This document shows, piece after piece, positions 7,566-64,000 of a DNA stretch of 64,000 nucleotides (its first letter is position 1; each line of letters starts with the position of its first letter). The stretch is from positions 62,460,537 to 62,524,536 of the forward strand of contig NC_054708.1 of NCBI RefSeq assembly GCF_016097555.1. The letters are read 5' to 3'. This DNA is from Gigantopelta aegis. Taxonomy: Eukaryota. The position numbers and the translations under genes are program-made. The notes beneath the pieces were generated by a model that saw only the letters and a program-made list of their open reading frames with translations, did not search any database and was not told the DNA's origin.

Positions 7566-8094
7566 AACATTATTATTACACCAGACCATCCTCTTTTAAA
7601 CTAATACAACTATTATCCATTGTCATCAGCTGTGACACCAATACGTCTGTTGTGAACACACAGCAAGTCTGAATTCCTATATTCATATATCTTTTGTACA
7701 CAGCTCACAAATGTTTTATTTGATATTTTACTAAATGTTTTATACTGCTATAATCGATTGACGATTTCTTTGCAGCTGGTTCATACAAGGATTCCATGTT
7801 TCAGAACTGAAATTAGAAATAAAACAATTCTAAATACTTAAAATGTGACATTCTGTATTATACTCCATGTGTTAAAAGTAATTAATAAACAACTTAAAGT
7901 GTCATCAGTTTAAAAACAAAACAAAATAAACCAAAAAATAGACACCAACCGAAGTTCATTACACTAAATGATATATATGTTTGGAAAGTAGTATATTTAA
8001 AAAACATGTTTTGTAGCGCCAGTTTTTAAATAAAAATATATCTATGTTTTAATGATTTTAAGGTTTTAAATTATTTTGTTAATGGATTAAAATG

Positions 8095-17546: not shown

Positions 17547-17566
17547 GGGGGGGGGGGGGGGGGGGG
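17547..17566. repeat. Poly-G homopolymer (about 20 nt) butting onto a SINE 5' end
   Basis: tgggggggggggggggggggggacgggacatagcc. Confidence 0.9.
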
Positions 17567-17880
17567 ACGGGACATAGCCCGGTGGTAAAGCACTCGCTTG
17601 ATGCGCGGTCGGTCTGGGATCGATCCCCGTCGGTGGACTCACGGGGCTATTTCTCGTTCCAGCCAGTACATCACAACTGGTATATCAAAGGTCGTGGTAT
17701 GTGTTATCGTGGCTGTGGGATTATGCATATAAAACAAATCCCTTTGCTACTAATGGAAAAATGTAGCGGGTTTTTTCTCTTGGACAATATGTCAAAATTA
17801 TCAAATGATTGACATCCAGTAGCCGATTATTAATAACTCAATGTGTTCTAGTGGTGTCGTTAAACAAAACAAACTTTAAA
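17564..17880 (+). mobile_element. tRNA-derived SINE, family A, full-length copy
   Basis: The head gggacgggacatagcccggtggtaaagcactcgcttgatgcgcggtcgg...gatcgatccccg carries A-box-like and B-box-like segments. The body reads gggctatttctcgttccagccag...ggtcgtggtatgtg...cccacag...agcaagggat...gtagcgggttt. The tail reads gacatccagtagccgat...caatgtgttctagtggtgtcgttaaacaaaacaaacttt. Confidence 0.8.
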
Positions 17881-18044
17881 CGAGACGTGGGGGAAGGGGG
17901 CAGAGGTCAACTGCCCTTCCCTCCCCCATGCCCAAGAGAAGGGGGAAATCTTCGCATTCGGGCAAAACCGATGGAGAGTGATTTTGTTTCTCAGTTTACA
18001 ACCCAATATAGCTGTTGGAAATTATGAAAATATGAATCAACGTT

Positions 18045-18263
18045 GTAAACCACTTGTACCGACCAGTGATCCATAACTGGTTCAACAAAGGCCATGGTTT
18101 GTGCTATCCTGCCTGTGGGAAGCGCAAATAAAAGATTCCTTGCTGCCTGTCATAGAAGAGTAGCCTATGTGGCGACAGCTAGTTTCCTCTAAAAAAGACT
18201 TTGTCAGAATGACCATATGTTTGACGTCCAATAGCCGATGATAAAATAAAAAATCAATGTGCT
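18045..18263 (+). mobile_element. 5' part of a SINE copy (A body, 5' truncated) interrupted by the LTR retrotransposon; the remainder of the SINE is at 23951-23990
   Basis: accgaccagtgatccataactggttcaacaaaggccatgg...tccaatagccgatgataaaataaaaaatcaatgtgct on one side of the insertion, ctagtggcgtcgttaaataaaacaaactttactttac on the other. This matches the uninterrupted SINE tail caatgtgctctagtggcgtcgttaaa seen at 31057-31100. Confidence 0.8.
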
Positions 18264-19389
18264 TGTCACGGGGATCCTATAATACCCGTAACTGAATAAA
18301 ACACGATTATCCAAATATCTCTTCTAACTGTATATCTATTAGATCTCTCTGTATCGGGCAGGCTACTACCCGAGTGACCCGGCTCTAGGAGTAATCAGAG
18401 ATAAGATCTATATATATATATATATATGTAGCACATTTAGTTCACTAGAAAACACAACAAAACACAATACACTTTGGAATCTGTATTAACTCTAACGCTG
18501 ACAAATGTACTTGCCGCAGTAGTTAATTAACAACAACAATATAATAACAACTCAGAACTAACCACTTAATTAGTTAATCACTAGGTGTCTAGTTTACACA
18601 ATATTCTAATCACTTCACCGTGATACAACACACACACGTGTGATAATTGAGAAACGCTGCCAGGGGAACTTAATTAATAAAGGAATTACAACTCTATTCC
18701 TAACTGGTTAATTTTTAATTAACCCGTAACTACTCATTCAGTAACCGTGTAATACAGAATTAATACTGGTACATACCCCAATAAAGACAATAACCTACAG
18801 TTTACCTAGGTCCTCTAGGATGACTGGCTAAGCTTTAATATTTTAGAACAGTGAAGCCTACAATTTACTTCGTCAGATTACCGGAGACACTGTCTAAATA
18901 ATATTGGTATAATACAGTATTAAAATATTTAAAGTCACATCAATCACATCAAGGTTATACAACAGAGAAGAAAAATATATTTACCAGTTCAGTCGGACAA
19001 CGTTCCCCGGGAGCCTTCCAATGTTTCTCCTCGATATATCTAAAATCCAATCTATTTATTAAAAAATCTCAGAGACAGCGAATATCGCCTGGGCACAACG
19101 CGGTACCTCACCTATCATGTGATATTTCCACAACTCCCAGGGACGGTATTTTTTTCTTAGATGGCCAGACTTACTGTCGCCAGTTCGCTAGAAATACCCC
19201 GGTCGTAAACCGCACTACCGGAGTTATTACGTAACTACTGTCCACATGGCCTCCACAACTGGTCTAAGTGCATATTGGGACGCAGCTCTACCACCGTCGC
19301 GCAGGGGTATTACGTAACCAAGCTGCACACGGCCCTCTAAAACAATTAACATCGCCATAGGCGAAAAGATAAGAGCATGATCCGTCACA
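18264..19389 (-). repeat. 3' LTR of the LTR retrotransposon (relative to the coding orientation)
   Basis: About 96-97% identical by eye to 22815-23945. It contains an internal (TA)n and has TG...CA termini. Confidence 0.9.
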
Positions 19390-19873
19390 CACACCCACCT
19401 CAAAAAGGATATTTCCTCTACTCTAGGAATAGGGAAATATACTACATTTAAAGAAAACAAAATGTGCGTTAACCGACGCATCCGGGCATTTATAACACAT
19501 AGTAATAAGGTGACTACCAGTAATCACACTGAGTCTCTAAGTCCCTGGTATACAATAAAATATATAAACAAAAACAGTCAACACATTATCACAACGTTCA
19601 ACTTCGGGACAGGGCATCAGCGATTACATTGGATGTGCCCTTGATATGTTCAATGGTAATTGGGAATTCCTGCAGAAGAAGACTCCATCTAAAAACTCTC
19701 TGGTTGGTGGCGAATGAAAGTAAGCGGATTATGATCAGTAAAGACCACCACTTGATGCAATGCCGACTTCACGTAGATCTGAAAATGCTTCAGAGCTTGT
19801 ACCATGGCCAAAGCTTCCTTCTCTATAGTGGAATAGTTCACCTCGTGTATGTCAAACTTTTTCGAGAAGAAAC

Positions 19874-21305
19874 TTACAGGATGGTCCAGTCCATTTTCGG
19901 TTCTTGGAACAGCACAGCTCCAGCTCCCACGTCACTGGCATCCACAATGTCGTGTTCCAACATGTAATCTATCTCCTTTTTCAGTGCCGCACGTTTTACA
20001 GGGTTTATCCGATAGGCATGCTTTCGAATCGGTGTAGCGTTGGGTTCCAAGCGCACATCCTGGATTAAGTTAGTAACCGTAGGAAAGTCCTGACAAATGG
20101 AAACATTGTCTTGTATCAATGTAGTCAACTTTGCTCGCTGGGGGCTGTCAAGGTGCTGTAGATAAGAACTCAAGTCTGCTAGAATCTGGCTATTGGTTAA
20201 CTTGATCTCTGCAGTCTTGACGTCATCACAGGAAGTTGAGTGACTCTCAATTTGGACAGGCAACACTGGAACTATCGGCAGTCTGTCAAAATAACCTTTT
20301 AGCAAATTGATGTGACAATACCTACTTTTCCTAACCCTATCAGGAGTGTTTATCACATACCCTGTCTCATTAACCCGTTTGTGCACAACATAGGGACCGA
20401 AATACCGGTTCTGTAATGAACCCCGTTTGCTTCCTAGCTAGTTCGGTCGCCTGCCACAACCTATCTGTAACTCTCCCTACATAAATCAGCAGGTTTTCGG
20501 CATTATCCTTGTCTATATAATAACCTGACATCTGATCCTCCATCTCACCCTCAGTTAACAATGTAGTGCGAGCTGCCAACAAATTTAGATCAGCCCCCTG
20601 CTCTAGGATTAACTCTTGTCTATTACAAGGTAAGTCCCCTCTATCAAACACAACTGGTTCATTTCCCCTCTGCGGGAAATCAACAGGTTCCACCACATTT
20701 AGTTCCTCAGTTGATTTATCTACCATTTTACTGATAACCTCATCCACTCCAATTTCATGGCTCACACATGTATCAGAAAAATCACAATTTTTCTCTGTGT
20801 CTCGTGCTACCCTTGCCATAGCCCTAGTCATTACACACGCAGGATATCTAATCTCATCAACCTCACACTCTTCTATGGGTAAAGGGCTGTCTTCAATGAA
20901 CAATTTGTCACCTTGCGGCTGGCAACACTGACTAGGCAAATCGTTACCCAACAAAACTCCTATGTTTTCAAAAGGCAAGTCCTTCACAACACCCATAATG
21001 ACTGGTCCCTTCACAAACTTCGAACAGAAGAAAACGTTATGTAACCGGACAACCATATTTTCCCCAGTAACCGAGGTTAAGTCCAAACTACGTCCTGTAT
21101 CTGAATTCTCCACACCAGCTAAACACTCTGACGTTACAAGAGACTGGCTACATCCTGTATCTCGATAGATTAATATTGCCTTAGGACTCAACTCTTGTTT
21201 CACATCACAAACCATACCAGTGGACACATACGGGTTTACTTTCTCTGCCATAGGTCTAACCATTAACTCTCTCGCTAACGGAGCTGACCTCACTAAACCG
21301 ACCAC
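19874..21305 (-). pseudogene. pol fragment: gag zinc knuckle, retropepsin (aspartic protease) and the N-terminal part of reverse transcriptase. The rest of RT, plus RNase H and integrase, is absent.
   Basis: ORF 20370-21305 reads QCTDFRPHCSYCKKDNHLVGDC (CX2CX4HX4C), then LIYRDTGCSQSLV (DTG protease), then LLGNDL. ORF 19874-20386 reads RKHAYRINPVKRAALKKEIDYMLEHDIV, which is RT-N-terminus-like. Only about 485 bp separate it from the 3' LTR. Confidence 0.75.
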
Positions 21306-22126
21306 TTGCGCATTATCGCGTTTCCTTTTAAAACAGTCCCCGACAAGATGGTTATCCTTTTTACAGTAACTGCAATGTGGACGAAAATCCGTGCATTGGC
21401 TGATAATGCAGGTTTATCCTTACTTTGCCCACCAGGTGCATTCCTTGCCTGACTAGCTGCCCAACTAAATGACTCTCTCCGATAGTTACTTTCCCGGGAA
21501 AAACCTGGCTGAAATTTCTTCTTATCACCCTGATGTATAGAGCTACCCTGTACTGCCTGAGCTTTGTGTATTAACACGTAATCATCTGCCGCTATGCCTG
21601 CCTCCTCTATTTTTTTGATATCATGATCCTCTAAATGAATACGTAAGCTAACTGGTAATTCATTTTTAATGTCCTGTAAGATCAACAATTCCCGTAACTC
21701 GGTATATGACCCTACCTGATGAGAAACCACCCATTTATCAAACATCCCTGCTTTCTTAGCCACAAACTCACTATAAAACTGACGCTGCGTTCTTGTCAAC
21801 TCGCTATACCGTAAACGATAATCCTCAGGTCATAACTCATAAGCCCTCAACACTGCAGACTTAACTAGGTCGTACTGACTTGCTCGCTCATCACTCATTG
21901 AATCATAAGCTACGCTAGCCTTCCCCTTAAACGTAGACACGGCTAACAATGTCCACTTAGACTGCGGCCAATTTAGCTGCTTAGCGGCCCGTTCAAAAAG
22001 TTGGAAGAACATATCTACCTCCTGGTCGTCAAATACAGGCACTGATCTATAAGCCTCCGACATGTTAAACCTATTTCCTGCCTCTTGTCTAACTTCTTCA
22101 GTATTCAACTTTAACTCATGTTCCAC
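21293..22126 (-). pseudogene. gag (capsid-like) of the LTR retrotransposon, split into two ORFs (21830-22126 and 21293-21799)
   Basis: The gag-like segment reads FFQLFERAAKQLNWPQSKWTLLAVSTFKGKASVAYDSM...AVLRAYEL, continuing into RTQRQFYSEFVAKKAGMFDKWV. It lies upstream of the pol frame and is separated from it by a frame change. Confidence 0.7.
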
Positions 22127-22138
22127 TTTTAATTTTGT

Positions 22139-22376
<238 letters not shown>

Positions 22377-22814
22377 GCACGTGCTTCTCTTTCGTACTCA
22401 AGCCTCAAGCTTTTTAAAAGCTAACTGTTGTTCCACACTTAACTCATTTATCTCTATTTGTGGAACAATCTCACTTTCTTCCATAACTGGACTATCACCA
22501 ACAACTTCCTGGATAATAATTGTCCTTATATCTCCTAATGTTTTAGCTGATGTTAAATCAATTTCCCGCTCACTCGTGATTTCAACTAATTCGGCCTTAC
22601 GCGCCCGCTTTATCTCCACTACACTGAGCGTATCCAGCAAATTCTTATCCATGTTTAGATATGACACACTTATTATTTATTTTTTCTAGTGAACAACGTT
22701 GCTACTTCTAGTGAATTTGTAAACATTTTTTATAAAGCCCCCATTTACAAACCATACTTTTCAAATATGGATGTCGCGTTTCAGGTCCGGGACGAGCACC
22801 CCAATTTTTATTCT

Positions 22815-23945
22815 TGTCACGGGGATCCTATAATACCCGTACCTGAATAAAACACGATTATCCAAATATCTCTCCTAACTGTATATCTATTAGAGCTCTC
22901 TGTATCGGGCAGGCTACTACCCGAGTGGCCCGGCTCTAGGAGTAATCAGAGTTAAGATCTAATATAAATATATATATATATGTAGCACGTTTAGTTCACT
23001 AGAAAACACCACAAAACACAATACACTTTGGAATCTGTATTAACTCTAACGCTGACAAATGTACTTGCCGCAGTAGTTAATTAACATCAACAATATAATA
23101 ACAACCCAGAACTAATCACTTAATTAGTTCATCACTAGGTGTCTAGTTTACACAATATTCTAATCACTTCATCGTGATACAACACACACACGTGTGATAA
23201 TTGAGAAACGCTGCCAGGGGAACTTAATTAATAAAGGAATTACAACTCTATTCCTAACTGGTTAATTTTTAATTAACCCTTAACTACTAATTCAGTAACC
23301 TTGTAATACAGAATTAATACTGGTACATATCCCAATAAAGACAATAACCTACAGTTTACCTAGGTCCTATAAGATGACTGGCTAAGCTTTAATATTTTAG
23401 AACAGTGAAGCCTACAATTTACTTCGTCAGATTACCGGAGACACTGTCTAAATAATATTGGTATAATACAGTATTAAAATATTTAAAGTCACAACAATCA
23501 CATCAAGGTTATACAACAGAGCAGAAAAATATATTTACCAGTCCAGTCGGACAACGTTCCCCGGGAGCCTTCCAATGTTTCTCCTCGATATATCTAAAAT
23601 CCTATCTATTTATTAAAAAATCTCAGAGAAAGCGAATATCGCCTGGGGACACAACGCGGTACCTCACCTATCATGTGATATTTCCACAACTCCCAGGGAC
23701 AGTATTTTTTTCTTAGATGGCCAGACTTACTGTCGCCAGTTCGCTAGAAATACCCCGGTCGTAAACCGCACTACCGGAGTTATTACGTAACTACTGGCCA
23801 CATGGCCTCCACACCTGGTCTAAGTGCATATTGGGACGCAGCTCTACCACCGTCACGCGGGGGTATTACGTAACCAAGCTGCACACGGCCCTCTAAAACA
23901 ATTAACATCGTCACAGGCGAAACGATAAGAGCTTGTACCGTCACA
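22815..23945 (-). repeat. 5' LTR of the LTR retrotransposon. A PBS-like sequence tggggtgctcgtcccggacc lies immediately internal to it, at 22795-22814 on the reverse complement.
   Basis: Direct repeat of 18264-19389 with the same termini. The LTR/internal junction reads agaataaaaattggggtgctcgtcccgg. Confidence 0.85.
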
Positions 23946-27830: not shown

Positions 27831-28650
27831 TACTGACACACAATGAAAACGCAAAACAGATATTTTTCAATATTTTGTTGTGATTAATGAAAAATATATT
27901 TATTGGATTTAAAATAACAATTTATGAGTGGAAGCCACTGATTGGTTCTTTTGTCTGGGTTTCAATCCTGGTTTTGTTCTCGTTACACATACAATAGCAG
28001 AAACACACAAAATGGTGTGAAATGCGTTCACTACATGCTCAATCATGCTGCATGCAATGCACGTGAAATGCCAGTATGTGGACACATAAAAGTCACGTAA
28101 CGGTGTCATATTCCTCGTCACATTAAGAATGCCACGACTCGGAGAACAACAAAGGGAGCGAGCGTTGGGCATGGTTCAAGGGAGGACTTCGCAAAGCCAA
28201 GTTGCTAGGACCTTCAGAGTCCATCCATCAAATATTGGACGACTTGTTGAACGTCATCAACAGACCGGGAGTGTCCGTGATCGACCTCGACCTGGTCAAC
28301 GTCCCGTTACGACCCCACGCCAAGATCGGCAGATTCGACGACACCACCTCCGTGACCGGTTCAGAACTGCGACGATAACAGCAAGCAACACGATAGGACG
28401 TCATGGAAGGCCTATCCATCCGATGACGGTAATCCGTCGAACGGCTGGACTCAAATGCAGACGCCCGTACAACGGTAACATCATGACATCGCGACATCGT
28501 GCTGCGAGACTACAGTTTGCTCTCCAGAATGGTAATCATCCACCATCTTCCTCTCATAAATTGTTATTTTAAGTCCAATAAATATATTTTTCATTAATCA
28601 CAACAAAATATTGAAAAATATCTGTTTTGCGTTTTCATTGTGTGTCAGTA
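27831..28650 (+). mobile_element. Tc1/mariner-like element, internal-deletion derivative. It has ~80-bp TIRs with TA flanks and keeps only the N-terminal part of the transposase.
   Basis: The left end tactgacacacaatgaaaacgcaaaacagatatttttcaatattttgttgtgattaatgaaaaatatatttattggat is the reverse complement of the right end tccaataaatatatttttcattaatcacaac...cattgtgtgtcagta. ORF 28129-28572 (MPRLGEQQRERALGMVQGRTSQSQVARTF...GSVRDRPRPGQRP...TTPRQDR) is a Tc1 transposase HTH region and ends before the DDE domain. Confidence 0.85.
28129..28572 (+). pseudogene. Truncated Tc1-like transposase (N-terminal paired-like DNA-binding region only)
   Basis: Similar to the N-terminus of the transposase at 1672-2025. 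No catalytic domain lies between it and the right TIR. Confidence 0.75.
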
Positions 28651-29585: not shown

Positions 29586-30872
29586 TAAATAATAAGACCA
29601 TACCATTTAGTCACCAATTAAAACGTTAAGACAAAACAGACGCAATTATCCATGTTCTTTTGTATAAATAAATACTTAACATGATAAAGAATTAGATAAT
29701 AAAGAATCGATAATAAGTTTAAACGTTAATTATCAACTACATTCGAAATGCTGTGCTAGGCTGTATGGGCAACCTCCTCTGGTTGACAGCTTTTCATTGA
29801 TTAGCAGGCTTCTTCCCTAACTCCCTAGATAGAATAAAATAATTAATCGTGGGACATATGTTTTCATTTTGTTTAGAAATAAACAGTAAAATCTTTTAAT
29901 AAAAATGAAAGAAATATGACAACAGTTTTTGTTTTCTGAAATTAAATAACCTACCCTTCGTGACATTTGTAACAAACAAATTAATTATAACGTTACATTA
30001 AAAACAAGTGAACTAAAACATCTAACATTATTACTTATTCATCGACGTTTTTCTTCTAAATGATATGGTCACGCAGTACAGCTCACTTCAATTACTTCGC
30101 TACGTTTTCTTTTTCAACCGAGTTTCAGATCGATGATTACTTCACTTTGGAAATATTACATCTTCTGATTTGTGATCTTATGGCACAAGAATCAAACAAC
30201 AAATCTTAAAAGTAATTTCTTCGCGGACATTAACAATCACCTCGCGGACCGCAGATTACGTTGGGTTAGAACAAATTCAGAAAGCATTACCCCGATGCTG
30301 CATGATTCATGACATAAAAAATTAAATTAAGACAAATAAGGAAATAAAGCGAGAACGGGACGACTTGAAGATGATTAAAGCAAGACGACTTCAAATACAC
30401 TTTATTACTCGAAGCCATGTAACTTAGTTTTCAGGAACATTTGATCTGAGCGATTTGAGTTGTCAAAAATAAAGTGTGTAATATTAAAGATATAATTTCG
30501 TTTTGCCCCGTGGACAAGGCTAATCGCCTAAGCTTAAATAAAGCAAAGTAATGTATATTTGTAGTTTTCTGTAGATGTGTGTGTTATAATGCAGGCCTGA
30601 TCCGCTTTAGATAACTAGTGTTTATGGTGAGCCGAATAGTAGATTTAAAGAAAATCGACCCACAAGTATTCATTTATCTTGACATTTATTAGCTTTCAGT
30701 GCCTTTACATCAATAAAAGATTACCGGTACTACATGCATTCGATTTCATTTTATAGATCCAAAGAACAGATCGCCGAGATTTGGCGCCAAATATATTTAA
30801 TAGGGTCTGTACAGAATTCATCAAACAGTGATCGGACAGGTTGTAATTTAAGAAATAAATTCGTACACGAAG

Positions 30873-31050
30873 TTTGTTTTGGGTAACGACACCACTAGAG
30901 CACATTGATTTATTAAGCATCGGCTATTGGATGTCAAACATTTGGTACTTTTGACATATAGTCTTAGAGAGAAAACCCGCTACATTTTTCCATTAGTAGC
31001 AAGGGATGTTTTATATGCACCATCACACAGACACGATGGCCTTTGATATA
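30873..31050 (-). mobile_element. SINE family A fragment (tail plus body)
   Basis: gggtaacgacaccactagagcacattgatttattaagcatcggctattggatgtcaaacatttgg...gaaaacccgctac...agcaagggat. Confidence 0.7.
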
Positions 31051-31056
31051 AAAAAA

Positions 31057-31444
31057 GTAAAGTAAAGTTTCTTTTATTTAACGACGCCACTAGAGCACAT
31101 TGATTTTTTTTTTTATCTTATCGGCTATCGAACGTCAAACTTGGTCATTCTGACACTGTTTTATTAGAGGAAACCCGCTACTCGTTTACGACAGATAGCA
31201 AGGGATCTTTTATCTGCGCTTCCCACAGGCAGAATAGAACAAACCATGGCCTTTGTTGAACTATTTATGGATAACTGGTCGGTGCAAGTTGTTTACACCT
31301 ACCCATTGAGCCTTGCGGAGCACTCACTCGGGGTTTGGAGTCGGTATTTGGATTAAAAATTCCATGCTTCGACTGAGATCCGAACCCAGTACCTACCAGC
31401 CTGTAGACCGATGGCCTAACCACGACGCCACGAAGCCGGTACCT
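31057..31444 (-). mobile_element. Chimeric SINE: C-type tRNA-like head fused to the family-A body and tail
   Basis: Reverse-complement head ggtaccggcttcgtggcgtcgtggttaggccatcggtctacaggctggtaggtactgggttcggatctc...ctcaatgggtaggtgtaa, then caccgaccagttatccataa...A body...caatgtgctctagtggcgtcgttaaataaaagaaactttactttac. Confidence 0.75.
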
Positions 31445-32589
31445 TTGATATATATCAGTCATAACGGCATCAAACCTGGTTAAATTCATCAGTTACTATG
31501 TTCAGTTAAAACAACTTTATTTCAACAAGATAACAAAAAAGTATACCCTAGCCAATTAACCCCTTATATGCTGTGAATTAAGAAAGGTGTAGTGTTTGGT
31601 GTAGGGTTTTTTTGTTGTTTTTAAAGAAGAAAAAAGTGATTCTAAATAATGAAACAGACACTGTTAACTATATAGTATACCTTATGAATATATCAGTATA
31701 TGTCTTTTAATTACATATGTATAAGATATTACAAGGGTCTGATACTCCTTTTGCTGATGTCATTTCTGACTGATATATTAAATCAGGTTTGATAATGTTA
31801 TAACATATAATGCAGATACATCGAGAGATAATTTGACTATTTTGAAGACAAAATGTCAAAACAATACAAATGTATGGATTATATTCACATAAAGGCAGCA
31901 ACAAACATTATCATATGTCATGAAATATGATAAGTGTGAAAAATATACATGTTAATTGTGCTTATTTCATTAAATATGCAATTTTGTGAAAAGTACGATT
32001 GTTTTTCACGTTACACGGAAATGTTTTATCCTGAAATAAAATTTCCTGGATTCTACAAGTAAAATTCATCGTGGCAAATGCTGGTAAATGTAAATATGTT
32101 TGCTTTTTTTCAGAGTGCTATCAGAGATCGATTCTTGACAAATGACTTTCGTCAACAGATGCTTCCTTACACCAAAGACTCTCATATGAGAAACGTATAT
32201 AATAATGCGTATTCAATCGGCTGTAATATGATAGACCAACTTTGGATCAATTTGTTTTTAACAATGAAGGGCTGTCAGAAAAATAACTCTGTTATATTCA
32301 GGTACTTGAACGAATTCATATTGATTTCTCCAAACTCGGAAAGTGTCGACTAACAGGAAGGAAATGGCATTTCCGGTCGGATAATAACTTGGCCTTTTCA
32401 CGGCCTTGGTTATTGTATTGTTTATTGTTTCTCATTATTTGGAATCTAAATGAGGTGAGCTAGCGACCCCATCCCGCCAACTTCCGGCGCTAACTATAGT
32501 TACTTACCGAAGAAAGGAAGGAAATGTTTTATTTATCGACGCACTCAACACATTTTATTTACGGTTATATGGCGTCAGACATATGGTTA

Positions 32590-32862
32590 AGGACCACACA
32601 GATATTGAGAGAGGAAACCCGCTGTCGACACTTTATGGGCTACTCTTTACGATTAGCAGCAAGGGATCTTTTATATGCACCATCCCACAGGAAGGATAAT
32701 ACATACCACGGTCTTTTCTACACCATTTGTGGAGCGCTGGCTAGAACGAGAAATAGCCCAACGGGTCCACCGACGGGGATTGATCCCAGACCGACAGCGC
32801 ATCAAGCGAACGCTTTACCACTGGGCTACTTCCCGCCCCCGTACCGAAGAAAGGACGGAGTA
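32590..32862 (-). mobile_element. SINE family A copy, left member of a head-to-head inverted pair
   Basis: The body is in reverse orientation (gaaacccgctgtcgac...agcaagggat...cccacag...ggctagaacgagaaatagccc). The head end reads gtacgggggcgggaagtagccc. Confidence 0.75.
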
Positions 32863-32863
32863 T

Positions 32864-32883
32864 GGGGGGGGGGGGGGGGGGGG
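32864..32883. repeat. Poly-G run (about 20 nt) between the heads of two inverted SINEs
   Basis: gagtatgggggggggggggggggggggcggaacg. Confidence 0.9.
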
Positions 32884-33085
32884 CGGAACGAAGCGCAGTA
32901 GCAAAGCGCTCACCTGATGCGCGGTCAGTTTAGCATCGATCCCCGTCGGTAGGCCCATTGGGTTGTTTCTCGTTCCAGCCAGGGCACCACGACTGACCAG
33001 TATATCAAACGACGTGGTATGTGCTTCCCTGTCTGGGATGGTGCATATAAAAAAAAATCCCTTGCTACTAATGGAAAAAAAATTA
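32883..33085 (+). mobile_element. SINE family A copy, right member of the head-to-head pair
   Basis: ggcggaacgaagcgcagtagcaaagcgctcacctgatgcgcggtcag...gttgtttctcgttccagccagggcaccacgactg...ggtatgtg...cccttgctactaatggaaaaaaattagg. Confidence 0.75.
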
Positions 33086-34196
33086 GGCTTACAGTAATAC
33101 TAGTAATGCCAGCAACAAATGTCACCAGTAAAAGGTTGTGTTTCTCACTGCGTAGGGTGACCTGAATCGCATAACGCTGCCTGAGAAGCAACAGACAATA
33201 TAGACATGTGCCAGGTGACAGACGAGTTTGCACGTTATAAAGAATCGCGACTGGCAACTTTCTAAAAATTCTAGGTGTGCTAGGTATCACGTGAACCGTA
33301 CATACTCGTACAGATTTTAGTGCTCTTTCTGTTTAATATGTTGACAATATTGGCCAAAAGTTGATATCTTTGAAAATGTTTTAAGCGGGAAGACCACTGC
33401 AGGACCGTCTGCAAGAGGGAGACACCCCTTCCACACCCAATATCTTCGCCGCCCCAATGTCAAATTCCTTTCGATGATTCATGTACAATTACAGATCAAG
33501 TTTGACTTCCATGGCAATTTACCATTTTTGACAGAACTATTGCACTTAAACTTAGGAGATACGAAAATTTGTTTCCCGTACCACAAACGTTTGATGGGAC
33601 ATTTTGTGTGTAGGTGTATCATGTTCTGTTACAGATGAAGTTCGACTTTCGCGGCGATTTATCCAAATGTTTACAGAGGTATGGCCCTTGAATTTAGGAG
33701 ATACGAAAATTTGTTGGGCCCGGTCAGGCATAATATTGTTTTAGCAATACTGTCAAAATGGCTGTTATAAATAGTGGTGGTATCTGCTTTATAAATGGAA
33801 GCGAGACTTTAATAAGCAGTTGGTCGGCTGATCTACGAGTATCTGACTTTATATTGCAACCAGCGGATGCTGCACTATTACTTGTCTGAGTAAAAGGTTA
33901 CTTAATCAAATAATCATGTTCAATTGTTTGCCACATATTGGTACTATATGGAAAATTAATTTCATCATGCGAGAAGAAATCTAGAGAGTCTTGTATCATG
34001 TCAAGATGACTTCATGGTAGACTACGACTTGTTTCCCGTAGAACAAAGAAAAATACACGATTGGTCACATAATGGCGTAATATAAGATAGACTACGAACA
34101 AACAGACAGACAGATAGTTTATCAAAGTCTCACCCCATTACAACATAATACAATGCAACATATACATACAAGCAATATAAAGTTAAAGTTTGTTTT

Positions 34197-34505
34197 GTTT
34201 AGTTTAATGACACCATTAGAGCGCATTGATTTATTAATCATCGGCTAATGGATGTCAAACGTTTGGTAATTTTGACATATATTGTCTTAGAGAGGAAACC
34301 CGCTACCTTTTTCCATTAGTAGCAAGGGATCTTTTATATGCACTATCCCACATACAGTGTAGCACACACCACGGCCTTTGGTATACCAGTCGTGGTGCAC
34401 TGGCTTAGACGAGAAATAGCCCAATGAGCCCATCAACGGGGATCGATCAAACACCGACCGCGTACGAAGCGAGCGCTTTACCACTGGACTACGTCCCGTC
34501 CCTAC
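34197..34505 (-). mobile_element. SINE family A, full-length copy
   Basis: The reverse complement starts gggacgggacgtagtccagtggtaaagcgctcgcttcgtacgcggtcgg...gatcgatccccg and ends with the body and tail ...atcggctaatggatgtcaaacgtttgg...gcgcattgatt. Confidence 0.8.
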
Positions 34506-34523
34506 AAGCCATATAAATATGTT

Positions 34524-37500
34524 TTGTGATCTTATGGCACAAGAATCAAACAACTAATCTTAAAAGTAATTTCTTCCCGGACATTAACAATCACCTCGCG
34601 GACCGCAGATTACGTTGGGTTAGAACAAATTCAGAAAGCATAACCCCGATGCTGCATGATTCATGACATAAAAAATTAAATTAAGACAAATAAGGAAATA
34701 AAGCGAGAACGGGACGACTTGAAGATGATTAAAGCAAGACGACTTCAAATACATTTTATTACTCGAAGCCATGTAACTTAGTTTTCAGGAACATTTGATC
34801 TGAGCGATTTGAGTTGTCAAAAATAAAGTGTGTAATATTAAAGATATAATTTCGTTTTGCCCCGTGGACAAGGCTAATCGCCTAAGCTTAAATAAAGCAA
34901 AGTAATGTATATTTGTAGTTTTCTGTAGATGTGTGTGTTATAATACAGGCCTGATCCGCTTTAGATAACTAGTGTTTATGGTGAAGCCGAATAGTAGATT
35001 TAAAGAAAATCGACCCACAAGTATTCATTTATCTTGACATTTATTAGCTTTCAGTGCCTTTACATCAATAAAAGATTACCGGTACTACATGCATTCGATT
35101 TCATTTTATAGATCCAAAGAACAGATCGCCGAGATTTGGCGCCAAATATATTTAATAGGGTCTGTACAGAATTCATCAAACAGTGATCGGACAGGTTGTA
35201 ATTTAAGAAATAAATTCGTACACGAAGTTTGTTTTGGGTAACGACACCACTAGAGCACATTGATTTATTAAGCATCGGCTATTGGATGTCAAACATTTGG
35301 TACTTTTGACATATAGTCTTAGAGAGAAAACCCGCTACATTTTTCCATTAGTAGCAAGGGATGTTTTATATGCACCATCACACAAACACGATGGCCTTTG
35401 ATATAAAAAAGTAAAGTAAAGTTTCTTTTATTTAACGACGCCACTAGAGCACATTGATTTTTTTTTTATCTTATCGGCTATCGAACGTCAAACTTGGTCA
35501 TTTTGACACTGTTTTATTAGAGGAAACCCGCTACTCGTTTACGACAGATAGCAAGGGATCTTTTATCTGCGCTTCCCACAGGCAGAATAGAACAGACCAT
35601 GGCCTTTGTTGAACCATTTACGGATAACTGGTCGGTGCAAGTGGTTTACACCTACCCATTGAGCCTTGCGGAGCACTCACTCGGGGTTTGGAGTCTGTAT
35701 TTGGATTAAAAATTCCATGCCTCGACTGAGATCCGAACCCAGTACCTACCAGCCTGTAGACCGATGGCCTAACCACGACGCCACGAGGCCGGTACCTTTG
35801 ATATATATCAGTCATAACGGCATCAAACCTGGTTAAATTCATCAGTTACTATGTTCAGTTAAAACAACTTTATTTCAACAAGATAACAAAAAAGTATACC
35901 CTAGCCAATTAACCCCTTATATGCTGTAAATTAAGAAAGGTGTAGTGTTTGGTGTAGGTTTGTTTTGTTGTTTTTAAAGAAGAAAAAAGTGATTCTAAAT
36001 AATGAAACAGACACTGTTAACTATATAGTATACCTTATGAATATATCAGTATATGTCTTTTAATTACATATGTATAAGATATTACAAGGGTCTGATACTC
36101 CTTTTGCTGATGTCATTTCTGACTGATATATTAAATCAGGTTTGATAATGTTATAACATATAATGCAGATACATCGAGAGATAATTTGACTATTTTGAAG
36201 ACAAAATGTCAAAACAAGACAAATGTATGGATTATATTCACATAAAGGCAGCAACAAACATTATCATATGTCATGAAATATGATAAGTGTGAAAAATATA
36301 CATGTTAATTGTGCTTATTTCATTAAATATGCAATTTTGTGAAAAGTACGATTGTTTTTCACGTTACCCGGAAATGTTTTATCCTGAAATGAAATTTCCT
36401 GGATTCTACAAGTAAAATTCATCGTGGCAAATGCTGGTAAATGTAAATATGTTTGCTTTTTTTCAAAGTGCTATCAGAGATCGATTCTTGACAAATGACT
36501 TTCGTCAACAGATGCTTCCTTACACCAAAGACACTCATATGAGAAACGTGTATAATAATGCGTATTCAATCGGCTGTAATATGATAGACCAACTTTGGAT
36601 CAATTTGTTTTTAACAATGAAGGGCTGTCAGAAAAATAACTCTGTTATATTCAGGTACTTGAACGAATTCATATTGATTTCCCCAAACTCGGAAAGTGTC
36701 GACTAACAGGAAGGAAATGGCATTTCCGGTCGGATAATAACTTGGCCTTTTCACGGCCTTGGTTATTGTATTGTTTATTGTTTCTCATTATTTGGAATCT
36801 AAATGGGGTGAGCTAGCGACCCCATCCCGCCAACTTCCGGCGCTAACTATAGTTACTTACCGAAGAAAGGAAGGAAATGTTTTATTTATCGACGCACTCA
36901 ACACATTTTATTTACGGTTATATGGCGTCAGACATATGGTTAAGGACCACACATATATTGAGAGAGGAAACCCGCTGTCGACACTTCATGGGCTATTCTT
37001 TACGATTAGCAGCAAGGGATCTTTTATATGCACCATCCCACAGGAAGGATAATACATACCACGGTCTTTTCTACACCATTTGTGGAGCGCTGGCTAGAAC
37101 GAGAAATAGCCCAACGGGTCCACCGACGGGGATTGATCCCAGACCGACAGCGCATCAAGCGAACGCTTTACCACTGGGCTACTTCCCGCCCCCGTACCGA
37201 AGAAAGGACGGAGTATGGGGGGGGGGGGGGGGGTGGCGGAACGAAGCGCAGTAGCAAAGCGCTCACCTGATGCGCGGTCAGTTTAGCATCGATCCCCGTC
37301 GGTAGGCCCATTGGGTTGTTTCTCGTTCCAGCCAGGGCACCACGACTGACCAGTATATCAAACGACGTGGTATGTGCTTCCCTGTCTGGGATGGTGCATA
37401 TAAAAAAAAAATCCCTTGCTACTAATGGAAAAAAATTAGGCTTACAGTAATACTAGTAATGCCAGCAACAAATGTCACCAGTAAAAGATTGTGTTTCTCA

Positions 37501-38873
37501 CTGCGTAGGGTGACCTGAATCGCATAACGCTGCCTGAGAAGCAACAGACAATATAGACATGTGCCAGGTGACAGACGAGTTTGCACGTTATAAAGAATCG
37601 CGACTGGCAGCTTTCTAAAAATTCTAGGTGTGCTAGGTATCACGTGAACCGTACATACTCGTACAGATTTTAGTGCTCTTTCTGTTTAATATGTTGACAA
37701 TATTGGCCAAAAGTAGATATCTTTGAAAATGTTTTAAGCGGGAAGACCACTGCAGGACCGTCTGCAAGAGGGAGACACCCCTTCCACACCCAATATCTCC
37801 GCCGCCCCAATGTCAAATTCCTTTCGATGATTCATGTACAATTACAGATCAAGTTTGACTTCCATGGCAATTTACCATTTTTGACAGAGGTATTGCACTT
37901 AAACTTAGGAGATACGAAAATTTGTTTCCCGTACCACAAACGTTTGATGGGACATTTTGTGTGTAGGTGTATCATGTTCTGTTACAGATGAAGTTCGACT
38001 TTCGCGGCGATTTATCCAAATGTTTACAGAGGTATGGCCCTTGAATTTAGGAGATACGAAAATTTGTTGGGCCCGGTCAGGCATAAGTATTGTTTTAGCA
38101 ATACTGTCAAAATGGCTGTTATAAATAGTGGTGGTGTCGGCTTTATAAATGGAAGCGAGACTTTAATAAGCAGTTGGTCGGCTGATCTACGAGTATCTGA
38201 CTTTATATTGCAACCAGCGGATGCTGCATTATTACTTTTCTGAGTAAAAGGTTACTTAATCAAATAATCATGTTCAATTGTTTGCCACATATTGGTACTA
38301 TATGGAAAATTAATTTCATCATGCGAGAAGAAATCTAGAGAGTCTTGTATCATGTCAAGATGACTTCATGGTAGACTACGACTTGTTTCCCGTAGAACAA
38401 AGAAAAATACACGATTGGTGACATAATGGCGTAATATAAGTTAGACTACGAACAGACAGACAGACAGATAGTTTATCAAAGTCTCACCCCATTACAACAT
38501 AATAGAATGCAACATATACATACAAGCAATATAAAGTTAAAGTTTGATTTGTTTAATTTAATGACACCATTAAAGCGCATTGATTTATTAATCATCGGCT
38601 AATGGATGTCAAACGTTTGGTAATTTTGACATATATTGTCTTAGAGAGGAAACCCGCTACCTTTTTCCATTAGTAGCAAGGGATCTTTTATATGCACTAT
38701 CCCACATACAGTGTAGCACACACCACGGCCTTTGGTATACCAGTCGTGGTGCACTGGCTTAGACGAGAAATAGCCCAATGAGCCCATCAACGGGGATCGA
38801 TCAAACACCGACCGCGTACGAAGCGAGCGCTTTACCACTGGACTACGTCCCGTCCCTACAAGCCATATAAATA
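34524..38873. repeat. Tandem segmental duplication, copy 2. It contains duplicate SINE copies at about 35231-35408, 35415-35802, 36948-37215, 37232-37440 and 38555-38863, and a poly-G run at 37217-37233.
   Basis: See copy 1. The junction reads ccatataaata|tgttttgtgatcttatggcac. Copy 2 ends at ccatataaataatgcaattg. Confidence 0.9.
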
Positions 38874-41306: not shown

Positions 41307-44300
41307 CAGACAGGTACTTCACCAGACAGGTACTCCACCAGACAGGTACTATACCAGACAGGTACTTCACCAGACAGGTACTCCGCCAGACAGGTACTCC
41401 ACCAGACCGGTACTTTACCGGACAGGTACTCCACCAGACAAGTATTTAACCAGACAGGTACTCCACCAGACAGGTACTTCACCAGACAGGTACTCCACCA
41501 GACAGGTACTTCACCAGACAGGTACTCTACTAGACAGGTACCCCACCAGACAGGTACTCCAGCTGACAAGTACTCCCCCAGACAGGTACTTTAAGAGACA
41601 GGTACTCTGCCAGACAAGTACTCTACAAGACAGGTACTCCACCAGACAGGTACTTCACCAGACAGGTACTCCACCAGACAGGTACTCCACCAGACAGGTA
41701 CTTCACCAGATAGGTACTCTACCAGACAGGTACCCTACCAGACAGGTAGTCCACCTGACAGGTACTCCACCAGACAGGTACTCAACAAGGTAGGTACTCC
41801 CCCAGACAGGTACTTTAAGAGACAGGTACTCCGCCAGACAAGTACTCTACCAGACAGGTACTCTACCAGACAGGTACTCCACCAGACAGGTACTTTAAGA
41901 GACAGGTACTCCGCCAGACAAGTACCCTACCAGACAGGTACTCTACCAGACAGGTACTCCACCAGACAGGTACTTTAAGAGACAGGTACTCCGCCAGACA
42001 AGTACCCTACCAGACAGGTACTCTACCAGACAGGTACTTTAACAGAGAGGTACTCCGACAGACAGGTACTCCACGAAACAGGTACTCCACTAGACATGTA
42101 CTCCACCAGACAAATACTACCGGACAGGTACTCTAAAAGACAGGTGCACTCTACCAGACAGGTACTCCACAAGGCACGTACTCCACCAGACAGGTACTCT
42201 ACCAATCAGGTACTCCACCAGACAGGTACTCTACCAGAGAGGTGCTACCAGACAGGTACTCCACCAGACAGGTATTCCACCAGACAGGCACTCCATCAGA
42301 GAGGTACTCCACCAGACAGGTACTCTACCTACCAGGTACTCCACTAGACAGGTACTCTACTAGATAGGTACTACCACAAAGGTACTCCACCAGACATGTA
42401 CTCCACCAGAGAGATACTCCACCAGACAGGTGCACTCTACCAGATAGGTACTCCACCAGGCACGTACTCTACCAGACAGGTACTCCACCACACAAGTACT
42501 CCATCAGACAGATACTCCATCAGAGAGGTACTCCACCAGACAGGTACTCTACCAATCAGGTACGCCACCAGAAGGTACTCCACCAGACAGGTACTCGACC
42601 AGGCAGGTACTCTACCAGACAGGTGCTACCAGACAGGTACTCCACCAGACAGGTATCCACCAGAGAGGTACTCCACCAGAGAGGTACTCCACACGACAGG
42701 TACTCTACTTATCAGGTACTTCACCAGACAGGTACTTCACCAGACAGGTACTCCACCAGAGAGGTACTCCAACAGAGAGGTACTCCACCAGAGAGGTACT
42801 CTACCAGATAGGTACTACCACAAGGGTACTCCACCAGACAGGTACTCTACCAGACAGGTACTCCACCAGACAGGTATCCACCAGAGAGGTACTCCACCAG
42901 AGAGGTACTCCACCAGACAGGTACTCTACCAGATAGGTACTACCACAATGGTACTCCACCACACAAGTACTTCACCAGACAGGTGCACTTCACCAGACAG
43001 GTGCACAACATCAGACAGGTACTCCACGACACAGGCACTCTACCTGAGGTCCTGCACCAGATAGGTACTCCACCAGACAGGTACTCCACCAGACAGATAC
43101 TCCACCAGACAGGTGCACTCTACCAGACAGGTGCAGTCTACCAGACAGGTACTCCATCAGGCACGTACTCCACCAGACAGGGACTCCACCAGACAGGTAC
43201 TCCACCAGACAGGTACTCCATGATACATGCACTCTACCTGAGGTACTGCACCAGATAGGTACTCTACCAGACAGGTACTCCACGACACAGGCACTCTACC
43301 TGAGGTACTGCACCAGATAGGTACTCCACCAGACAGGTACTCCACGAGACAGGTACTCTACCAATCAGGTACGCCACCAGAAGATACTCCACCAGACAGG
43401 CACTCTACCAGACGGGTACTCTACCAGACAGGTGCTACCAGACAGGTACTCCACCATAAAGGTACGCCACCAGACAGGTAATCCACCAAAGAGGTACTCC
43501 ACAAGACAGGTACTCTACCTATCATGTACTCCACCAGACAAGTACTCCACCAGACAGGTACTCTACTAGATAGGTACTACCAGAAAGGTACTCCACCAGA
43601 CAGATACTCCACCAAACAGGTACTCCACCAGACAGATACTCCACCAGACAGGTGCACTCAACCAGACAGGTGCACACCACAAGACAGGTACTCTACCAGA
43701 CAGATACTCTACCAGATAAGTACTCCACCAGACAGACACTCTACCAGACAGGTACTCCTCCAGACAGGTACTCGACGAGACAGGTACTCGACGAGACAGG
43801 TACTCCATCAGACAGGTACTCTACCAGACAGGTGCACTCTACCAGACAGGTACTTCACCAGGCAGGTACCTCACCAGACAGGTACTCTAACAGACAGGTG
43901 CACACCACCAGACAGGTACTCCACCAGACAGATACTCCACCAGACAGGCGCACTCAACCAGACAGGTGCACACCACAAGACATGTACTCCACCAGACAGA
44001 TACTCCACGACAGAGGCACTCTACCTGAGGTACTGCACCAGATAGGTACTCCACCAGACAGGTACTCCACCAGACAAGTACTCCACCAGACAGGTACTCC
44101 ATCAGACAGGTACTCTACACAACTACTCCACCAGACAGGTACTTTACCAGACAGGAACTCTACCAGACAGGTACTCTACCAGACAGGTACTTCACCAGGC
44201 AGGTACCTCACCAGACAGGTACTCTAACAGACAGGTGCACACCACCAGACAGGTACTCCACCAGACAGATACTCCACCAGACAGGCGCACTCAACCAGAC

Positions 44301-45499
44301 AGGTGCACACCACAAGACAGGTACTCCACCAGACAGGTACTCCACGACAGAGGCACTCTACCTGAGGTACTGCACCAGATAGGTACTCCACCAGACAGGT
44401 ACTCCACCAGACAGGTACTCTACAAGACAACTACTCCACCAGACAAGTACTTTACCAGACAGGTACTCTACCAGACAGGTACTCTACCAGAAAGGTACTC
44501 CACCAGACAGACACTCTACCAGACAGGTACTCCTCCAGACAGGTACTCGACGAGACAGGTACTCCTCCAGACAGGTACTCGACGAGACAGGTACTCCATC
44601 AGACAGGTACTCTACCAGACACATGCACTCTACCAGACAGGTACTTCACCAGGCAGGTACCTCACCAGACAGGTGCACTCTACCAGACAGGTACTCCACC
44701 AGACAGGTACTCTACTAGACAGGTGCACTCTACCAGACAGGTACTCCACCAGACAGGTACTCCACCAGAGAGGTACTCAACAAGACAGACACTCTACCTA
44801 TCAGGTACTCCACCAGACAAGTACTCGACCAGACAAGTACTCGACCAGACAGGTACTCCACCAGACAGGTACTACCAGAAAGCTACTCCACCAGACAGGT
44901 ACTCCACCAAACAGGTACTCCACCAGACAGGTACTCCACCAGACAGATACTCCACCAGATAGGTGCACTCTACCTGAGGTACTGCACCAGATAGATACTC
45001 CACCAGACAGATACTCCACCAGACAAGTACTCCACCAGATAGGTACTCCACCAGACAGGTACTCCATCAGACAGGTACTCTACAAGACAGGTACTCTACC
45101 AGATAGGTACTCCACCAGACAGACACTCTACCAGACAGGTACTCCTCCAGACAGGTACTCGACGAGACAGGTACTCCTCCAGACAGGTACTCGACGAGAC
45201 AGGTACTCGACGAGACAGGTACTCCACCAGACATGTACTTCATCAGACAGGTGCTCTCTACCAGACAGGTACTTCACCAGACAAGTACTCCACCAGACAG
45301 GTACTCTACCATACAGGTGCACTCTACCAGACAGGTACTCTACCAGACAGGTACTCCACGAGACAGGTACTCCACGAGACAGGTACTCCACGAGACAGGT
45401 ACTCCACCAAACAGATACGCCACCAGACATGTACTCCACTAGACAGGTACTCCACCAGACAGGTACTCCACCAGACATGTACTCCACCAGACAGGTACT
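41307..45499. repeat. Satellite DNA with a 16-bp unit CCAGACAGGTACTCCA, about 4.2 kb and about 260 units with variant subrepeats
   Basis: Strict 16-bp periodicity is visible throughout. Variants include gacgagacaggtactc and a 22-bp unit caggtgcactctaccagacagg. Open frames on both strands with a 16-aa period (TRQVLHQTGTPPDRYS) are a consequence of the 48-nt super-period. Confidence 0.9.
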
Positions 45500-46731: not shown

Positions 46732-46752
46732 CCCCCCCCCCCCCCCGCCCCC
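46732..46752. repeat. Poly-C homopolymer, about 20 nt with one G interruption
   Basis: agaccccccccccccccccgcccccattt. Confidence 0.9.
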
Positions 46753-57639: not shown

Positions 57640-58080
57640 GTCCATTATTACAGGCTAAAACTGTGCCTTTAAGGGTTTGGTAAATAGTGGTTGATTCCAT
57701 GAATCTCTAGTGCCTTGTCTATAGGAAGACAGCCACTCTTGACCATATTTCTGCACAATACAGAGGCGAATGGGCATTTGGCAAAATAGTGGTTGATTCC
57801 ATGAATCTCTGCCTTGTCTATAGGAAGACAGCCACTCTTTAGATCATTTACTGGACAATACAGAGTGGAATGGGCATTTGGCAAAATAGTGGTTGATTCC
57901 ATGAATCTCTAGTGCCTTGTCTATAGGAAGACAGCCACTCTTTAGGACATCCTTTACTGGACAATACAGAGTGGAATGGGCATTTGGCAAAATAGTGGTT
58001 GATTCCATGAATCTCTAGTGCCTTGTCTATAGGAAGACAGCCACTCTTTAGGACATCCTTTACTGGACAATACATTGGAT
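57640..58080. repeat. 106-bp satellite, array 1 (about 4 units)
   Basis: Unit acagagtggaatgggcatttggcaaaatagtggttgattccatgaatctctagtgccttgtctataggaagacagccactctttaggatatcctttactggacaat. Confidence 0.9.
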
Positions 58081-60990: not shown

Positions 60991-60999
60991 GAAGACAGC

Positions 61000-62985: not shown

Positions 62986-62989
62986 ACGT

Positions 62990-63840: not shown

Positions 63841-64000
63841 TTTTCTAACTTTTTAAAACGAAATATTGTACAGTCCTCTCTAGCCCTCGCTTACAACATT
63901 CAATAAGGGGAGGACCAGAGGTGACTCGAGCTTTAGGTATCTATGCAAACCATTCACAATTTCACGTCTTTAAGCACTTTAGGCATCTATGCAAACCATT

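Follow-up and report, generated by a model that had tools for sequence, protein, structure and literature searches.

Long G/C homopolymers in a gastropod genome: tracts at SINE 5' ends within a wider class of probable microsatellites

Long runs of G stand directly before the 5' ends of several SINE copies in the window analysed here, a 64-kb stretch (64,000 nucleotides) of repeat-rich eukaryotic DNA with about 38% G+C. A sequence-only reading of the window had attributed the runs either to expansion of the G residues with which the SINE begins or to untemplated 5' addition during retroposition, and had described inverted SINE pairs that meet head to head at such a run. The question raised by this locus is whether the runs are a signature of SINE insertion or belong to a class of tracts that is found in the genome irrespective of this SINE.

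Long G/C tracts and SINE copies in the window

Six G/C homopolymers of at least 15 nt were counted in the 64-kb window, ranging from 15 to 26 nt, and the same run-length count found no G/C run of 8-14 nt there. The expected number of occurrences of the G15 word was 0.00 in 100 dinucleotide-preserving shuffles of the window. The six homopolymers are true sequence features, far beyond chance, and all were confirmed at the positions where they had been described:

17547-17566, plus strand: G20 tract, in which the G5 of the target and the GGG of the SINE (17564-17566) leave about 12 G in excess
32864-32883, plus strand: G20 tract, its final 4 G being the opening bases of a plus-strand SINE
37217-37236, plus strand: G17 T GG tract (G17 part 37217-37233), duplicate of the 32864 tract, of equal 20-nt length with one substitution
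46732-46752, minus strand: C15+G+C5 (G5 C G15 on the minus strand), adjoining no SINE or other recognisable repeat
58370-58394, minus strand: C25 (G25 on the minus strand), not at a SINE but surrounded by unique sequence within a duplicated unit of about 3 kb
61396-61421, minus strand: C26 (G26 on the minus strand), duplicate of the 58370 tract

When scored for G4 potential, as had been suggested, all six tracts were predicted to be G4-competent, with G4Hunter-type scores of 3.0-4.0 (3.3 for the tract of the inverted SINE pair) that refer to sequence competence only.

Self-comparison of the window revealed two segmental duplications:

30166-34519 and 34520-38873: tandem segmental duplication, 4354 bp per unit, 98.8% identity
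58242-60798 and 61267-63841: second duplication, about 3 kb, 98.1% identity

One tract locus was copied within each of them, giving G20 (32864) vs G17TGG (37217) in the 4354-bp duplication and 25 nt (58370) vs 26 nt (61396) in the other. Since two pairs of tracts are thus segmental-duplication copies, the six tracts reduce to four independent ones, and of the three SINE-head cases previously counted as independent only two are left, 32864 and 37217 being duplicates. Two of the four independent tracts (17547 and 32864) abut SINE heads and the other two abut nothing recognisable. No retroposon 5' end was detectable at the 46732 and 58370 tracts, and a search for target-site duplications (TSDs) at these two tracts and at the SINE copy at 32880 gave nothing convincing; downstream of the 58370 tract, at about 210 nt, there is a poly(A)-like stretch, but it had no matching TSD. 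The 4354-bp duplication has its junction (34519/34520) immediately after the TSD of the SINE at 34182-34502, at a distance of 17 nt from the head of that SINE, and the tandem duplication bearing C25 and C26 was found to embed a 106-bp satellite in three blocks (57682-58074, 59963-61032 and 62990-63732).

The SINE is about 320 bp long and its consensus opens with GGG(A/G)CGGGA. BLAST hits to the SINE, whether copies or fragments, numbered over 10 in the window and over 40 in the 226 kb of related DNA, and TSDs of 12-15 nt were recovered for three copies. The family is therefore short (<500 bp), dispersed, multi-copy and flanked by TSDs, as a SINE should be. A tRNA-derived SINE promoter consists of an A box (TRGCNNAGTGG) and a B box (GGTTCGANNCC) at tRNA-like spacing. 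The A box of this SINE, TAGCCCAGTGG, is a perfect match at positions 12-22 and was read directly as TAGCCCGGTGG in SINE copy 1, and about 30 nt downstream of the A box there is a B-box-like sequence, GGGATCAATCC, in which 7 of 11 positions match. ARAGORN and Rfam, its tRNA model included, found no tRNA or other RNA family above threshold. An exact-pattern scan for the SINE core gave no match in viral and metagenome contigs, and the 120 metagenome loci that carried the SINE head pattern were discarded, as none matched the SINE body; they are presumably ordinary tRNA genes.

The SINE 5' ends that follow the runs at 17547, 32864 and 37217 read GGGACGGGAC / GGGGCGGAAC, confirming that these runs directly precede SINE heads. 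It had also been noted that other copies, given as 34505 and 38863, lack the run. Their heads lie at 34502 and 38856, the second being the duplicate of the first, and both are indeed free of it:

34182-34502, minus strand: full-length SINE without a run, head GGGACGGGACG, TSD TACAAGC[A/C]ATATAAA at 34167-34181 and 34503-34517

The locus at 17547, which we call SINE copy 1, preserves both junctions of the insertion:

17540-17546, plus strand: unique part of the 5' TSD, GAGACGT, matching 17882-17888 just after the SINE tail and directly followed by the G run
17564-17881, plus strand: full-length SINE copy 1 (GGGACGGGACATAGCCCGGTGG ... CAAACTTTAAAC), delimited by BLAST against other copies
17882-17893, plus strand: 3' TSD of SINE copy 1, GAGACGTGGGGG, whose G5 stayed short

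The order at this locus is GAGACGT-G20-ACGGGACATAGCC ... CAAACTTTAAAC (ending in TTTAAAC)-GAGACGTGGGGG-AAGGGGG, and from this order with its matching flanks the duplicated target was identified as GAGACGTGGGGG. The target ends in G5. Only its 5' copy, fused to the GGG of the SINE, is long, and the 3' copy is still G5; the target G5 abutting the SINE GGG thus provided a seed of at least G8 at the 5' junction only. About 12 G of the run are unexplained by target and element. The surroundings of SINE copy 1 are rich in G/C tracts, with a C-rich block (C7AC3GC5A5C6) about 70 nt upstream in the region 17437-17480. A hairpin, GGGGGAAGGGGGCAG...CTGCCCTTCCCTCCCCC, is found immediately after the 3' TSD (17889-17930).

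Other repeats were also identified in the window. A 4.2-kb tandem array at 41307-45499 consists of about 262 copies of a 16-bp unit, CAGACAGGTACTCCAC, with 80% matches and about 50% G+C; it shows a strong A>T and C>G strand skew, and ORFs of up to 426 aa are open throughout. A probable LTR retrotransposon at 18262-23945 is bounded by 1.13-kb direct repeats (18262-19389 and 22813-23945, 96.6% identical) and contains gag/pol-like ORF fragments at 19874-21799 on the minus strand. For its 311-aa ORF (20370-21305, minus strand) no homologue was found among 5.8 billion proteins.

The head-to-head SINE pair

A minus-orientation and a plus-orientation SINE had been described as meeting at 32590-33085 with only the G run between their heads, the former beginning at 32590, and the same arrangement had been seen in a duplicate. 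The features found by us in this region and its duplicate are as follows:

32505-32518, unstranded: left TSD TACCGAAGAAAGGA of the younger minus-strand SINE, read from the sequence
about 32520-32840, minus strand: full-length SINE, head GGGGGCGGGAAGTAGCCCAGTGG, with only G5 (BLAST and sequence reading)
32842-32855, unstranded: right TSD TACCGAAGAAAGGA of the minus-strand SINE (14 nt), inside the 23-nt spacer 32841-32863
32880-33079, plus strand: older SINE, 3'-truncated or rearranged, homology stopping at about position 195 of about 320
36873-37193, minus strand: duplicate of the minus-strand SINE in the second duplication unit (BLAST and self-comparison)
37233-37433, plus strand: duplicate of the plus-strand SINE (BLAST)

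The minus-strand SINE therefore spans about 32520-32840 rather than starting at 32590, and 23 nt in addition to the run, including its own TSD, separate the two heads. The plus-strand SINE, for which no TSD was recovered, is 75-78% identical to other copies. Excising the minus-strand SINE (32520-32840) restores a continuous flank, ...GGACGGAGTAT-G20-CGGAACG, indicating that the older SINE already had the tract at its head when the younger SINE landed 9 nt upstream of that tract. In the order of events that we propose, the younger SINE with its own TSD would have landed beside the existing tract first, and the whole 4.35-kb segment would then have been tandemly duplicated; the second head-to-head pair is there because of this duplication. 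The "palindrome" amounts to a single nested insertion, present twice through segmental duplication.

The inverted arms (32724-32840 and 32879-32995) are 117 nt long, 79% complementary and 38 nt apart (spacer 38-43 nt). The fold of 32590-33085 as single-stranded DNA is much stronger than those of its shuffles (z = -12.6), and the hairpin gave weak matches to miRNA-precursor models in Rfam, all far below threshold (32 bits vs gathering scores of 76 and 137). Both the strong fold and these matches are trivial outcomes of two SINEs lying in inverted orientation. Closely spaced inverted Alu pairs are hot spots of hairpin and cruciform instability, as known from work in yeast and human. The pair studied here resembles them in having two inverted SINEs with a short spacer; however, its arms are only 79% complementary over 117 nt with 38-43 nt between them, and the locus survived segmental duplication intact. 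Inverted repeats with such arm divergence and spacer are stable, and the highly similar arms and very short spacer of an unstable inverted repeat were not found in this pair. Thus the inverted pair and its duplicate do exist, but the cruciform reading attached to them is weak.

G/C tracts away from SINE heads

Tracts were also counted in related DNA. The sample comprised 11 loci of about 20 kb around Tc1 transposase genes in the ENA assembly ERZ25071447 (226 kb, of which about 206 kb was non-redundant). These loci were picked through proteins of that assembly that matched the Tc1 transposase ORF of the window at 83-90% identity, and as they were chosen without regard to G runs the sample is unbiased in this respect. 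Tc1 copies were 92-94% identical between sample and window and 93-95% identical among the sample copies, indicating that the sampled genome belongs to the same or a sister species. The SINE family of the window was present in the sampled loci too, and for a host gene in one of them the closest named relative was from Gigantopelta aegis (57-65% identity), with Lottia and Haliotis next, which identifies the organism as a gastropod. The statistics given below rest on about 0.3 Mb in total, with tract lengths as given by the assembly.

The Tc1/mariner element of the window lies at 737-2308, with a DDE_3 transposase ORF at 960-1541 on the minus strand, and many copies with 90-96% identity occur in ERZ25071447; a second Tc1 N-terminal fragment was found at 28129-28572. 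One sampled locus (L005, contig ctg87118) contains a polysaccharide pyruvyl-transferase gene of 452 aa as a single ORF at 6393-7751 on the minus strand. Four further paralogues with 64-72% identity are located on the same contig (855,609 bp), suggesting a local expansion of the pyruvyl-transferase family. In other gastropods the relatives of this protein are fused to a TPT transporter domain.

The 226 kb of sampled DNA contained 28 G/C runs of at least 10 nt, or about 1 per 8 kb, with a maximum of 20 nt; A/T runs of this length were no more numerous (25), in a genome with 38% G+C. None of the 28 abutted a SINE head, and many were located inside other repeat families or satellite, or adjoined (GT)n or (GA)n microsatellites. 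No run was carried by any of the roughly 12 independent SINE heads that are intact in the sample, G2-G4 at most being found there. Taken over sample and window, heads without a run and with only G2-G5 made up about 12 of 12 in the sample and 2 of 4 independent heads in the window. Thus the specificity for SINE heads that had been implied does not hold: the tracts at 46732 and at 58370/61396 adjoin no recognisable repeat, and similar G runs unrelated to SINE 5' ends, named beforehand as the finding that would speak against the link, occur genome-wide. Likewise, long G/C tracts are rare in genomes in general, as had been stated, but the wider sample showed that they are not rare in this snail genome. 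Tracts of at least 18 nt numbered 3 in the 206 kb of non-redundant DNA, that is 14.5 per Mb in this small sample (95% CI 3-42). As a weak control, a 22-kb locus of Haliotis asinina contained neither a G/C run above 7 nt nor a copy of the SINE, the probability of finding 0 runs at the focal density being about 0.07.

In the sampled loci the G/C runs of 4, 5, 6, 7, 8 and 9 nt numbered 496, 103, 59, 14, 8 and 3, respectively, after which the counts levelled off, with 1-5 runs for each length between 10 and 20 nt; A/T runs decayed smoothly with length. When sampled loci and window were pooled, 34 of the 45 G/C runs of at least 8 nt, but only 34 of the 879 runs of at least 4 nt, reached 10 nt. The G/C length distribution is bimodal, with geometric decay down to 8-9 nt and a plateau from 10 to 26 nt.

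Tract length also differed between copies of the same sequence. In three other repeat families, paralogues had GGGGA, GGAGGGG or G6-10 where one copy had G11-18 (G10-18 overall). Copies that were 96.8% identical differed by G13 vs G15AG6 and by G9A vs G14, and the duplicates in the window, 98-99% identical, differed by 25 vs 26 nt and by G20 vs G17TGG, which shows that tract length is unstable. At the SINE heads the G20 tract overlies the first GGG or GGGG of the element, where other copies have G2-G5.

Several further observations were made on the sampled tracts. A dispersed repeat of about 350 bp (L001 8162-8548, L009 1487-1834, L006 18698-19040 and L004 17812-18117) carries G and C tracts that differ by copy, with GGAGGGG, G10 and (GT)6G18 at one homologous site. 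A satellite-like array at L003 1000-3067, with 10-15 nt G tracts in its units, supplies 6 of the 28 sampled runs. At L005 14876-14895 a minus-strand G20 stands near, but does not abut, a rearranged SINE head with an internal deletion, being 24 nt upstream of that head. A candidate upstream motif, GGAGTA[AT], was rejected, being common only to two unrelated families and the window in a purine-rich low-complexity context.

Origin of the tracts and comparison with known systems

The reading that we favour is that the G runs are probably G/C mononucleotide microsatellites of a genome-wide class of 10-26 nt, for which the SINE head is one seed among others. The runs are not a special signature of SINE insertion; two tracts would simply have grown from G-rich SINE starts, and because similar runs occur genome-wide away from SINE heads the link to the SINE is incidental and not defining. 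A short G cluster would first cross a length threshold of about 8-9 nt and would then expand, presumably by replication slippage with an expansion bias, and this growth would have taken place after rather than during insertion. Since the element opens with GGG(G/GG), its 5' end is a ready-made proto-microsatellite. At SINE copy 1 (17540-17566), insertion beside the G5 of the target would have made a seed of at least G8, later grown to G20. At 32864 the TSD search found none, and the seed may have been the GGGG of the SINE alone. Growth from G4 to G20 is then a low-probability event, as about 12 other heads with G2-G5 were left unexpanded. The first of the two mechanisms originally offered, expansion of the 5'-terminal G of the SINE, is therefore the one favoured, with a run that sits on GGG(G), a G8 seed in copy 1, the 34 of 45 runs and the seeds seen in paralogues. 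The second, untemplated 5' addition, is not needed, about 12 other intact heads having only G2-G4.

The threshold reported for mononucleotide microsatellites is about 8-10 nt (PMC3622297). The bimodal distribution is what a length threshold with rapid growth would give, and the apparent threshold of the sampled runs agrees with the published value. The paralogue comparisons support growth from short seeds, although the direction of change, expansion or contraction, is our interpretation of the aligned copies. The flat plateau at 10-26 nt is unlike simple symmetric slippage, and an extra bias or protection is needed to account for it. Random placement, with about 16 heads and the observed tract density, would give an expected value of about 10^-3 for two independent tracts exactly at SINE heads. 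Growth from a seed predicts this adjacency of tract and SINE head and needs no step specific to retroposition. With 2 of about 16 heads the excess over other G3-G5 clusters is at most mild, both cases coming from the flagged window and the sample giving 0 of 12.

Transposon-borne proto-microsatellites are a known source of microsatellites, as in the middle A-stretch and poly(A) tails of Alu and L1 (Grandi & An 2013, PMC3812793). The SINE described here is similar in that a short homopolymer of the consensus passes about 8-10 nt and becomes length-unstable in some copies and not in others. It differs in that the seed is G instead of A and is located at the 5' end instead of in the 3' tail or middle linker, and in that the seed of at least one copy was completed by the G's of the duplicated target site.

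If the runs were instead born with the insertion, the reverse transcriptase of a partner LINE would have added a run of C to the cDNA at the 5' end of the SINE RNA. In copy 1 the run does follow the unique part of the 5' TSD and precede the first SINE base, with about 12 G unaccounted for, and two independent copies of different subfamilies (78% identical) have a run exactly at the 5' end. Non-LTR reverse transcriptases, for example that of R2, can extend their product by a few non-templated nucleotides on reaching the end of the template. The 5' junctions of non-LTR insertions are also similar in that the junction of copy 1 falls within G's common to target (G5) and element (GGG), as microhomology joining gives, and in that extra bases stand between TSD and element. 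They differ in that 1 to a few mixed nucleotides are added there, whereas 12-16 pure G would be needed here and most copies here have none. Untemplated 5' additions of 1 to a few nt are heterogeneous in sequence, and we know of none as long as these runs. In addition, the G2-G5 at about 12 of 12 sampled heads and at 2 of 4 independent heads in the window contradicts a general property of the family: extra bases occurred in 2 independent copies, were absent from about 14 intact heads and so did not recur across the family. Since none of the 28 sampled runs was at a SINE head, many being in other repeats or unique DNA, and since tracts of equal length at 46732 and 58370 are without a detectable retroposon end, we consider untemplated addition unlikely. 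Inheritance of the run from a master copy was rejected, because the two run-bearing copies are in different subfamilies (78% identity). At type 2 promoters pol III starts about 12 nt upstream of the A box, and 16 extra G farther upstream would not be transcribed.

Artefacts of assembly, polishing or sequencing, such as the poly-G of two-colour chemistry or the miscalling of homopolymers, could imply that the true tracts are absent or much shorter. Homopolymer lengths are the least reliable part of assemblies, and both SINE-head tracts are exactly 20 nt long. Nevertheless, the tracts are internal, and their flanks on both sides are collinear with homologous sequence in duplicates or paralogues, where a short G seed occupies the corresponding position; this rules out chimeric joins. 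The duplicates keep the tract with small, real-looking differences (one substitution in one pair and one nucleotide in length in the other), and interrupted tracts occur (G5CG15). No Illumina or MGI adapter sequence was found in the window, and neither were a join or non-collinear flanks of the kind that a poly-G artefact would leave. Moreover, tracts of the same class are present in the separate assembly ERZ25071447, and long-read errors typically shorten homopolymers instead of creating them. We therefore hold it improbable that the tracts are artefacts.

Alternatively, a long G tract could have pre-existed in the target and the 3' CCC of the cDNA could have annealed to it, so that SINE heads would come to stand beside old tracts. 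The 5' junctions of LINE-mediated insertions are known to show microhomology, and in copy 1 the target is rich in G (GGGGGAAGGGGG), with the junction falling among G's. However, the run is downstream of the unique part of the TSD and must be within the TSD or the insert, and a long run in the TSD would make the 3' copy long, which is G5. Microhomology accounts for the position of the junction and not for 12 extra G, and a pre-existing tract is accordingly given little credence. Least probable is that the inverted pair and the G run at its centre form an element with a function or a structure under selection (a cruciform, a G4 or a hairpin RNA locus). Its fold, its weak Rfam matches and its predicted G4 competence are the points in its favour, but the fold follows trivially from two diverged SINEs in opposite orientation, the Rfam matches are far below threshold, one ordinary insertion with its own TSD suffices and no second independent example was found, the other pair being a segmental duplicate.

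Among known systems, the tracts also come close to those of Caenorhabditis, where poly-G/poly-C tracts are maintained by DOG-1/FANCJ (Zhao, O'Neil & Rose 2007, PMC2211496). For C. elegans the reported tract density is about 4 per Mb, as against 0.06 per Mb for human and 0.08 per Mb for yeast (PMC2211496). Both systems have over-represented, dispersed, pure G/C tracts with G4 competence (about 18-32 nt in Caenorhabditis), and in the small 206-kb sample pure tracts of at least 18 nt were over-represented in the same manner, at about 14.5 per Mb (CI 3-42; about 0.2 Mb sampled) vs about 4 per Mb. The present genome differs in phylum, being that of a gastropod mollusc. A shallow literature search found no published description of long G/C tracts in molluscs.

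The association with SINE heads itself carries little weight, being an incidental outcome of a G-rich 5' end; the notable point is the abundance of tracts at the genome level. As assembly, polishing and short-read mapping are least reliable at such tracts, they deserve flags in annotation. G/C tracts of 18 nt or more are at least as dense in the sampled genome as in C. elegans, the textbook example of tracts that require FANCJ/DOG-1. We tentatively suggest, as a possibility still short of an even chance, that this gastropod lineage may hold a tract population like that of Caenorhabditis or denser, with a long mode of 10-26 nt, produced by G-specific slippage with an expansion bias or by unusual protection of G4 tracts, transposon ends such as the GGGG of the SINE being one recurrent seed; less likely, a LINE reverse transcriptase would add long C tails to SINE cDNA. 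If the abundance is true genome-wide and in reads, a mollusc would provide a second animal lineage in which the origin and tolerance of long G4-prone tracts can be studied.
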